49,773 nt of DNA from IMG/VR virus record IMGVR_UViG_647533158_000006. One strand, given 5' to 3'. The DNA is from a virus (Duplodnaviria; Heunggongvirae; Uroviricota; Caudoviricetes). The translations under genes were made by a program, and so were the position numbers. Position 1 is the first letter of the stretch, and the number at the start of each line of letters is the position of its first letter. Below are positions 42,119 through 43,815 of this stretch, one piece after another. The notes under the pieces were generated by a model. It was not told where the DNA came from and did no database searches. It worked only from the letters and a program-made list of their open reading frames with translations.

Positions 42119-42149
42119 AAGCATGTTTTTACTTGCCTGATGCAGTCGG

Positions 42150-42233
42150 TGACTCTAAACTCTGCGGACTTTTGTATCTGGCTAAAGTAAAAATCGTGGT
42201 ATATAGTCGTTAACAACGACTGAGGGACAAGAC
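42150..42233 (+). promoter_or_regulatory. Candidate promoter (extended -10 TGGTATATA) with 7-bp inverted repeat AGTCGTT-AAC-AACGACT at the transcript start
   Basis: Directly visible: ...gtaaaaatcgtggtatatagtcgttaacaacgactgagggacaagacATG. Confidence 0.45.
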
Positions 42234-42806
42234 ATGGCAATAGGTTACGCATTCGCATTGGCGGCAATTACGCAGCAGGTTAATCAGATTAATGAATCTG
42301 TTAATGGTGCGTTTCTTCCGTTGATCTCAAATGCTTGTGAAATGCCGCAGAGACTTAATGCTGAAGAAGCTTTCAGACGTTGTTCTGCAATTGCCGGGCT
42401 ATCTCAGGAAGTTGAAAACACTGCTACCGCAGGAATGCGTCATCTTGAAGCGTTCCGTGATGGAAAGTTAGTGGCGGATAACCTTCCAGAGGATTTTTTG
42501 CCGCATCTTGACGGTTTGGCAAAAGCATGTCGCGGTGCGAAAATACACATCGTGGAGATGTTTTCGGTCGCGGAAAAATCGCCGATGTGGCAGGGGCATT
42601 TGGGCATGCTTCGTCCGCTGAAACGGAAGTATGTACGCGCCTTAACTGCCGTTGAAAATACTGCTGTTCAACTGGCCGCAGAAGTTAAACAGGTTTTACC
42701 TGCGCGGCCAGAATCTTTACCATCTCAAGTTACTCGCGAAGAGGCGATTAATCTGATTACAGCATCCCACAAAATGCTGGGCGTCAACACACCGAAATGG
42801 ATGTGA
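42234..42806 (+). CDS. Hypothetical helical protein (190 aa), first gene of an embedded cassette
   Basis: Track ORF with GAGGGA ribosome-binding site; no recognisable family. Confidence 0.55.
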   Translation: MAIGYAFALAAITQQVNQINESVNGAFLPLISNACEMPQRLNAEEAFRRCSAIAGLSQEVENTATAGMRHLEAFRDGKLVADNLPEDFLPHLDGLAKACRGAKIHIVEMFSVAEKSPMWQGHLGMLRPLKRKYVRALTAVENTAVQLAAEVKQVLPARPESLPSQVTREEAINLITASHKMLGVNTPKWM

Positions 42807-42807
42807 T

Positions 42808-43224
42808 ATGGCGAAGGTCAGTATAACAGGTGAGTTGTGCCATCTCGCGGCTGCGCACAAATACGCGCAAATGCTGGCAGATTTTCTTTCAAATGGTTCA
42901 CAATACTGGTGTTTTGGTTCGCTTGGTGGTTTCGAAAGAAATTATGATGCGATGGCCGCGAACATCAGAAAAATACACTTAAAGTTACCTGGTGATAAAC
43001 CATGGCCTCCAGATGCGCCGTTAAGTGCAAGAACCTGTGATAATTTCCTTGTTTTCGCACAGCACCTTTACGATGATGAGCACTACCAGATTCTTGCAAT
43101 CATAAACCCTGATGCACATCAGCGTGTGGATGCGATGCTTCCACGACTGGTAAGGCTTGCAGAGGAAAAATTTATTGAACTTTCCTCTGATGAGTTAGCC
43201 AGGCTAAAAACCTATGACGCTTGA
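42808..43224 (+). CDS. Hypothetical protein (138 aa), second gene of the embedded cassette
   Basis: Starts 2 nt after the upstream stop; followed by a terminator. Confidence 0.55.
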   Translation: MAKVSITGELCHLAAAHKYAQMLADFLSNGSQYWCFGSLGGFERNYDAMAANIRKIHLKLPGDKPWPPDAPLSARTCDNFLVFAQHLYDDEHYQILAIINPDAHQRVDAMLPRLVRLAEEKFIELSSDELARLKTYDA

Positions 43225-43225
43225 A

Positions 43226-43252
43226 CCCGCCGCAATCGGCGGGTTTTGCATA
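43226..43252 (+). terminator. Rho-independent terminator
   Basis: ACCCGCCGCAATCGGCGGG followed by TTTTGC. Confidence 0.6.
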
Positions 43253-43815
43253 TTTACCGGATGTAGCTTCCGGTATGAGGTAAATTCTCGGGGGCAGTCT
43301 AACTGCTACTTATTGCTAGATACACATTTTTCAAAGTTTTTTATCATGTCATTCAAGACTGAATTCATTGCCTCATGGGTTTTATGATCTATTCTTTATC
43401 TAGATAATCTTTATTATTTTTTTTGTGTTTTCTTTAGTGTCAGTAATTGCCTTTTTACATACTTGATAATTAGAGAAATGACTGTGCCCATATCTTTTAT
43501 ATTATATGGGTTGTGTAAAGTGTCAGGAGGAATTATCATAATAAATATTGTCGAATTTCATTGACATTATTCCAGATTTTCCATAGATGGAATCTGATAA
43601 GTATGCAGTATTCATATTTCCGGCAGTAAAGTTATCAGTATGACACAGAAAGCGCAGCCCGTATTGAATTTTTAATCTATGCATAGCATCGTTGCAGGCT
43701 GCTCTTATTAGACGGGTATGATTATTGTCTTATTCTTTATCGCATGCTGAAATGAAAGAGTGGATGCAATTAATAATAAAATTAATTTCTTCATAACTTA
43801 TCCTTGAGATTAACT

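Follow-up and report, generated by a model that had tools for sequence, protein, structure and literature searches.

Toxins of the YafO family adopt the BECR fold and degrade mRNA, and they are encoded in operons in which the antitoxin gene precedes the toxin gene; whether their activity depends on the ribosome is debated (PMC11980606; PMC8546651). Here, we describe a phage-borne gene pair that shares with such operons the toxin family and the gene order, and that differs from the Escherichia coli YafN–YafO operon in its partner protein, its location, and its control region. The pair encodes proteins of 190 and 138 amino acids (aa) and lies among the tail genes of a 49,773-nucleotide (nt) DNA, IMG/VR virus record IMGVR_UViG_647533158_000006 (Caudoviricetes), which we refer to in its entirety as the window and number from its first letter (position 1). 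The window is a Rac-SA53-like E. coli prophage. We regard the region as probably a mobile phage-borne type II toxin–antitoxin (TA)-like operon, a moron that has entered a cargo hot spot of this prophage. Toxin–antitoxin function had been one of several guesses in an earlier note on the same DNA, and it is the best reading of the pair. The same note had proposed an undescribed two-component system, a description that has to be narrowed because the 138-aa protein matches the YafO family (PF13957) and its RefSeq homologues are already so named; the 190-aa partner alone is undescribed.

The YafO-family toxin and its upstream partner

The two open reading frames (ORFs), for which we recovered the same coordinates as the earlier note, are:

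42234–42806, + strand: ORF1, 190 aa; all-helical presumed antitoxin, matching phrog_35514
42808–43224, + strand: ORF2, 138 aa; YafO-family toxin (PF13957) with a RelE/ParE-type fold

The 138-aa protein matches Pfam PF13957 (YafO toxin) with 60.4 bits against a cut-off of 25 (E 1.9e-16), its residues 35–120 aligning with positions 12–98 of the 101-position profile, and shares 29% identity with E. coli K-12 YafO across a 70-residue conserved core. Homologues in RefSeq carry the name ‘type II toxin-antitoxin system YafO family toxin’. The structures nearest to its AlphaFold model (predicted local distance difference test [pLDDT] 80) are HigB, HigB1, HigB2, YafQ, RelE, and ParE, and the model has the RelE/ParE (BECR) fold. 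We therefore treat the protein as a YafO-family toxin with a RelE/HigB-like fold, for which RNase or growth-inhibiting activity is predicted. It scores 29.7 bits against the NCBIfam YafO equivalog NF007377, for which the cut-off is 153, and so falls short of orthology; on these scores, it is to be placed in a separate subfamily, rather than as an orthologue of E. coli YafO, and this subfamily is small (23 clusters).

The view that neither protein matches a known family was thus mistaken for the 138-aa protein and holds for the 190-aa protein, which found no match in Pfam, NCBIfam, or PADLOC and none in the PDB, either by sequence or by profile. Its only named match is phrog_35514, of unknown function, and it gives no alignment with YafN (E 24). 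Family searches, PDB-profile searches, and a fold search likewise returned no DNA-binding domain of the helix-turn-helix (HTH), ribbon-helix-helix (RHH), AbrB, or Phd types. The structure model (pLDDT 78) contains four long helices, a low-confidence linker (residues 155–167), and a C-terminal helix (168–181), and the sequence ends in a conserved tail (...PKWM), in which the W and the M are invariant. As modelled, a four-helix bundle is joined through a flexible linker to a C-terminal helix and tail, both conserved, and fold searches with the model found generic helical bundles only. The family is narrowly distributed, with 29 clusters in a set of 5.8 billion proteins; when 1.84 billion representative proteins were searched with a profile, 16 clusters were recovered and no link to a named family emerged. 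All clusters come from Enterobacterales or their phages. We take the protein to represent an undescribed family and presume it to be the antitoxin for the 138-aa toxin.

What ties the two proteins together is the constancy of their association. In all 59 loci examined, the YafO gene directly follows the 190-aa gene after a gap of 1 nt, and this pairing is kept even where relatives of the 190-aa protein share just 27% and 35% identity; the two families are also of similar size (29 versus 23 clusters). In the window, both genes are on the + strand, and they are probably translationally coupled, because the toxin gene starts 1 nt past the upstream stop codon. Small, adjacent, co-oriented, and tightly coupled genes, with the antitoxin first in YafO-type systems, constitute the usual layout of a type II TA operon. 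This conservation of gene order marks the 190-aa protein as an obligate partner of the YafO toxin; that it neutralises the toxin is presumed.

Insertion site and movement between phage backbones

The surroundings of the cassette in the window comprise:

41771–42118: 115-aa gene, left neighbour; phrog_7986 (unknown function), no Pfam hit
42094–42121, + strand: imperfect 28-bp direct repeat, left copy; coincides with the 3′ end of the 115-aa gene, including its stop codon, and delimits the insert on the left
43254–43281, + strand: right copy of the imperfect 28-bp direct repeat; right edge of the insert
43296–43815, − strand: decayed pseudogene, AT-rich (30–36% guanine plus cytosine [GC]), derived from a gene for a 179-aa signal-peptide protein
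43816 onwards: Baseplate_J gene (J), right neighbour

The alignment with the cassette-free prophage of E. coli W breaks off at 42112 and picks up again at 43296, which delimits an insert of positions 42113–43295. In E. coli W, ETEC4085, and Rac-SA53, the cassette site holds a reverse-strand gene for the antirepressor Ant together with the 179-aa gene, so the comparison with insert-free relatives that the earlier note had suggested as a check upholds the status of the cassette as cargo. A cassette at the same site was seen only in TUM9812, L019, and L020, with different right-hand neighbours in each; L018 has one as well and is probably the window's own contig. The two copies of the 28-bp repeat agree at 19 of 28 positions. 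E. coli W has a single copy, matched at 20/28 positions by the left copy and at 24/28 by the right, and TUM9812 shows the same pattern as the window. The insertion could have come about by target duplication or by recombination.

To the left, the 115-aa gene had been called gpW-like, a label that is not supported by its match to the phrog listed above. To the right, the 590 bp separating the cassette from J are the remnant of a reverse-strand gene rather than an empty spacer. The tblastn match is interrupted by frameshifts, stop codons, and one deletion, and the gene (product MKKLISLLI...) is intact in E. coli W and ETEC4085. This pseudogene is part of the cargo island that holds the cassette and is outside the cassette proper. 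A promoter or regulatory region for J, which the AT-rich gap might also have represented, was displaced as a candidate by this finding.

The same unit recurs on other backbones. A block corresponding to positions 42155–43247, from the promoter region through the terminator, is present at approximately 72% identity in a different myovirus prophage, where it is located between a baseplate gene and a spike gene, in thirty-seven E. coli genomes and one Shigella record. Most members of this second backbone are without it (approximately 37 genomes with the cassette versus 347 with matching flanks, chiefly the spike gene). Elsewhere, the cassette follows directly after the tape-measure gene (in the Flyfo siphovirus), lies between a DUF6246 gene and the tape-measure gene (in several siphoviruses), or comes after the tail-tube and chaperone genes; lambdoid prophages of Klebsiella have it in the nin region, and one copy lies in a setting that does not resemble a phage. 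Clustering of the flanking sequences yielded twelve upstream and twelve downstream clusters and, hence, at least ten distinct contexts. The cassette is present in 46 IMG/VR contigs and in 1 of 185,579 species-representative genomes, the latter scan having been limited to a few peptide patterns.

From these alignments, we conclude that the cassette is moron-type cargo that moves, promoter to terminator, between unrelated phage backbones, and the earlier description of its architecture as moron-like is borne out both by relatives that lack it at the site and by the transfer of the block as a whole. One of the usual marks of a moron, presence and absence among close relatives at the same site, can be recognised. 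For a promoter and a terminator of its own, the cassette has a predicted promoter, which matches the consensus at 8 of 12 positions and is conserved in position, and a strong, conserved terminator-like hairpin with a U-tract that is short in the window. Distinct composition is not seen: the GC content of the cassette is 43–50% and that of the adjoining tail genes is 45–54%.

Several observations concern the neighbourhoods of the cassette rather than the cassette itself. In the second myovirus backbone (L005 positions 5559–5912 and relatives), the site 5′ of the spike gene has the YafO cassette in some members and a DUF4282 gene in others, and adjoins a small gene, the product of which opens with a signal-peptide-like sequence (VKKWIVIGLCFLPGLAFA); this site looks like another cargo hot spot. 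Record PP818812.1, ‘Actinobacillus phage vB_Apl-pPE4’, is 95.7% identical to the E. coli prophage family of the window over the baseplate genes, and its host label looks doubtful, being so close to E. coli prophages. In the window, a 55-aa ORF with a hydrophobic segment (…FYTVLIVIGGFAVAKSLPG…) is located at 41540–41707 (+ strand) between a baseplate gene and the 115-aa gene, and a small ORF (rac58) is annotated at the matching position in Rac-SA53. Further downstream (45649–49773, + strand) are two consecutive sets of tail-fibre and tail-fibre-assembly-like genes, encoding products of 517 and 181 aa and then of 465 and at least 201 aa, an arrangement that suggests alternative or duplicated host-range modules.

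Predicted promoter, leader, and terminator

The non-coding elements of the cassette are:

42133–42161, + strand: predicted sigma-70 promoter; −35 TTGCCT (42133–42138), 17-nt spacer, −10 TAAACT (42156–42161)
42197–42205, + strand: extended −10 TGGTATATA of the earlier note, or TATAGT at 42202–42207; possible second, lineage-specific promoter
42205–42221, + strand: inverted repeat AGTCGTT-AAC-AACGACT, perfect 7-bp arms, immediately 5′ of the Shine–Dalgarno sequence
42222–42226, + strand: Shine–Dalgarno sequence GAGGG, 7 nt 5′ of the ATG
43224–43255, + strand: intrinsic-terminator-like hairpin; stem 43224–43232/43237–43245, then UUUUGCAUAUUU

We compared twenty-five distinct upstream sequences. 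Most lineages have the pattern TTGnnn-17-TA(A/C)ACT with the −35 element approximately 100 nt 5′ of the ATG, and the hexamers are kept across lineages while the sequence of the 17-nt spacer is free to vary; the exceptions are L014, in which the promoter is further upstream, L059, which has an 18-nt spacer, and L008, which has a weaker match at the same position. In the window, transcription would start near 42168. The extended −10 element reported earlier is indeed present at 42197–42205. The corresponding promoter (CTGGCT-18-TATAGT, likewise 8/12) is, however, restricted to the window and TUM9812, and the better-conserved promoter is approximately 45 nt upstream, so that the earlier assignment was probably off by that distance. 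A consensus scan called neither the −10 element nor the terminator of the earlier note.

If the promoter is the one at 42133–42161, the inverted repeat falls inside a leader of approximately 65 nt. The earlier note had placed a 7-bp inverted repeat between its −10 element and the ribosome-binding site, and a perfect repeat is found there, directly followed by GAGGG; (A)GAGG is kept in most leaders, with other purine-rich sites in L014, L059, and the L050/L052 group. A 7-bp repeat alone is not above chance (17 pairs of such length occur in 1.85 kb). This one is single-copy in the window, is conserved in twelve distinct leader sequences, and folds into a hairpin of −7.1 kcal/mol (z −3.9). The small stem-loop is alone in this respect, the leader as a whole folding no better than shuffled sequence (z about 0). 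A search of Rfam with the leader and the rest of the cassette gave no credible hit (RNAI reached 21.9 bits against a cut-off of 47, which we take as chance).

Two functions can be considered for the repeat. As a DNA operator, AGTCGTT-N3-AACGACT would be bound by the 190-aa protein, alone or with the toxin, and the cassette promoter would be repressed, much as palindrome-based autoregulation is the rule in type II TA systems. The perfect symmetry and single occurrence of the repeat in the window fit such a role, as do the overlap with the lineage-specific −10 element (42197–42207) and the finding that the arms form the best-conserved non-coding block across backbones, with only the 3-nt spacer varying. 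Against it, the right arm reads AGCGAC or AGCGGC in seven of the twelve distinct leaders, A-to-G changes that break the DNA palindrome and keep the RNA pairing: all 72 of 72 pair cells in the twelve leaders pair, with U-A to U·G as the sole kind of change. One lineage has GTCGA/TCGAC at the site, with both sides of a pair changed, and in more distant lineages the place of the repeat is taken by GC-rich hairpins, unrelated to it, with a U-run. Furthermore, the conserved promoter would put the site at about +38 to +54 of the transcript, and no DNA-binding fold was detected in the 190-aa protein by the searches described above. The statistics weighing against an operator are weak, few independent substitutions being available and a shuffle control for covariation of the stem being uninformative as only one side of each pair varies. 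We consider the operator a possible but doubtful explanation, and the autoregulation by palindrome envisaged earlier unproven and somewhat disfavoured. Because the repeat survives in relatives only as RNA pairing that tolerates G·U, the evidence is suggestive of a leader RNA stem-loop as the more likely identity of the 42205–42221 element.

Other leader elements are present as well. A second inverted repeat (42170–42190) lies just 3′ of the conserved −10 element. Its sequence is TTAGC-N5-GCTAA in the majority of lineages; Flyfo has CTAGC/GCTAG, other lineages have ATTTATC/GATAAAT, and in the window and TUM9812 the repeat is degenerate. It covaries between lineages (leaders of L020, L005, L007, L013, L043, L050, and L052) and may act as an operator at the start of transcription or, alternatively, as a 5′-terminal RNA hairpin. 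In L014 (approximately 4950–4985), L059, and L009 (approximately 1525–1560), a strong GC-rich hairpin with a U-run is located between the promoter and the ribosome-binding site; this terminator-like element suggests attenuation in these distant lineages.

At the other end of the cassette, a strong hairpin is present where a terminator had been predicted after the second gene. The hairpin AACCCGCCG-caat-CGGCGGGTT (43224–43245) starts at the final base of the stop codon of the 138-aa gene and has a GC-rich stem of 9 bp (−20.1 kcal/mol, z −4.4). Most lineages keep the hairpin, with compensatory changes in the stem (e.g. CCCGCC/GGCGGG to CCACC/GGTGG in Flyfo). The U-tract that follows it in the window is just 4 U long.

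Function, rival readings, and comparison with known systems

The TA-like operon that we propose would work as follows. Transcription would begin at TTGCCT-17-TAAACT (42133–42161), pass through a leader of approximately 65 nt in which the conserved stem-loop (42205–42221) abuts the ribosome-binding site, and end at the hairpin past the stop codon; the 190-aa and 138-aa genes would be translated as a coupled pair. In a lysogen, the 190-aa protein would bind and neutralise the toxin, probably via its conserved C-terminal segment (residues 168–190). Were this balance upset, by a superinfecting phage that shuts off host expression, by inactivation of the partner, or by loss of the prophage, free toxin would cleave mRNA and translation would stop. 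A competing infection would then be aborted, or cells that had lost the prophage would die.

The latter outcome could be the sole function, in which case the cassette would be purely an addiction module that kills or arrests cells losing the prophage and has no anti-phage role. The architecture matches that of plasmid and prophage addiction TA systems, and the cassette belongs to mobile elements only (46 IMG/VR contigs versus a single species-representative genome in the pattern-limited scan). The considerations on the other side are not decisive: segregational loss of integrated prophages is rare, the model of the partner suggests a stably folded bundle rather than a labile antitoxin, and the cargo spots otherwise house accessory genes (e.g. 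Ant and an LprI-family gene). We favour a putative abortive-infection or superinfection-defence role over pure addiction, which we regard as unlikely. Less likely still is a function in the lytic cycle, in which read-through from the late tail operon would express the RNase to stop translation by the host or a competitor and the partner would set the timing. Nearly all contexts have the cassette oriented like the tail genes, and the terminator-like hairpins with U-runs in some leaders would tie expression to antitermination, but the cassette has a conserved terminator and a conserved, if only predicted, promoter of its own, it has been found in the early nin region as well as in a setting unlike a phage, and most relatives of each backbone are without it. 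That both proteins are baseplate or tail-assembly components is suggested by location alone (amid baseplate genes in the window, next to tape-measure genes in other contexts), and we reject this very improbable reading, given that both sequence and fold identify the second protein as a YafO toxin, that the first has only generic helical-bundle neighbours, that the structural comparison of both models called for by the earlier note found no baseplate or tail homology, and that the pair is variable in position among related phages, missing from most relatives at the site, and present also in replication and nin regions.

Several points nevertheless weigh against the TA-like operon that we prefer. 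The toxicity of the 138-aa protein, its neutralisation by the partner, and a phage phenotype are predictions from sequence and structure models, and the NF007377 score lies so far under its cut-off that the activity of E. coli YafO is not simply transferable. As an antitoxin, the partner would be atypical: it exceeds the toxin in size, its model predicts a well-folded protein, and it is without an RHH, HTH, AbrB, or Phd fold. The isoelectric points (5.8 for the toxin and 7.8 for the partner) do not follow the usual TA charge pattern. Neither protein matches a defence model of PADLOC-DB 2.0.0 at E values up to 1. The promoter TTGCCT-17-TAAACT, at 8/12 to consensus, went unlisted by the consensus scan and is a prediction only, and the co-orientation with late tail genes in most contexts makes late read-through and a lytic role possible.

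A bolder version, which we put forward as speculative and rather improbable in its entirety, would run as follows: the 190-aa bundle would be a new class of antitoxin without a DNA-binding domain, acting as a sensor that frees a YafO-type RNase on a phage cue; the leader stem-loops (in some lineages, a terminator-like attenuator) would exert control at the RNA level, with no operator involved; and the whole would be an abortive-infection system hopping from tail module to tail module across unrelated phages.

What is new here is the undescribed partner family and the unusual leader, the toxin family being already known. The analysis assigns a probable function to a pair annotated as ‘hypothetical protein’ and ‘YafO family toxin’ in dozens of prophages of E. 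coli, Shigella, Salmonella, Klebsiella, Citrobacter, Serratia, and Cronobacter, and recognises a so far uncharacterised protein family as partners of YafO toxins. Should the cassette be an abortive-infection or exclusion module, a YafO-based system would join the known prophage defences as a compact cassette that passes, together with its promoter and terminator, from the tail module of one phage to that of an unrelated phage. For the question of RNA-level versus operator-level control of a TA operon, the leader elements make a small test case. That type II toxins swap antitoxin partners is well established, and the conceptual gain is accordingly moderate.

Literature searches found no description of a 190-aa/YafO pair, and comparison must be made with systems that resemble the cassette in part. 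It is like the prophage TA systems that abort infection in being, on present predictions, a two-gene toxic module carried by a temperate phage in a cargo island of variable content, a resemblance of analogy only, and differs in that its proteins match no PADLOC-DB model. Like the morons of lambdoid phages, in which a promoter, a gene, and a terminator are set between late genes, it is variable at its site, lies between tail genes, and has its own predicted promoter and terminator; it differs in its ordinary GC content (43–50%), its imperfect 28-bp target direct repeat, and its structured leader. Compared with the RelE/ParE-superfamily (BECR-fold) toxins HigB, YafQ, and RelE, the cassette toxin has in addition an N-terminal helix and a C-terminal helical extension; for YafO itself, no solved structure exists.

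The closest described system is YafN–YafO of E. coli K-12. The toxin family (PF13957) is common to both, with 29% identity in the core and a score for the cassette toxin far under the NCBIfam YafO equivalog cut-off, and in both the antitoxin gene, or presumed antitoxin gene, comes first and nearly abuts the toxin gene. By analogy, mRNA cleavage and translation arrest would be expected of the cassette toxin as of YafO (PMC11980606; PMC8546651). The upstream proteins are dissimilar, a 97-aa YafN in one case and a 190-aa helical-bundle orphan in the other. The settings differ as well: E. coli YafN–YafO is encoded in the chromosomal dinB-yafNOP operon, which is reported to be SOS-regulated, whereas the cassette is phage cargo with a leader, a terminator, and a predicted promoter of its own.

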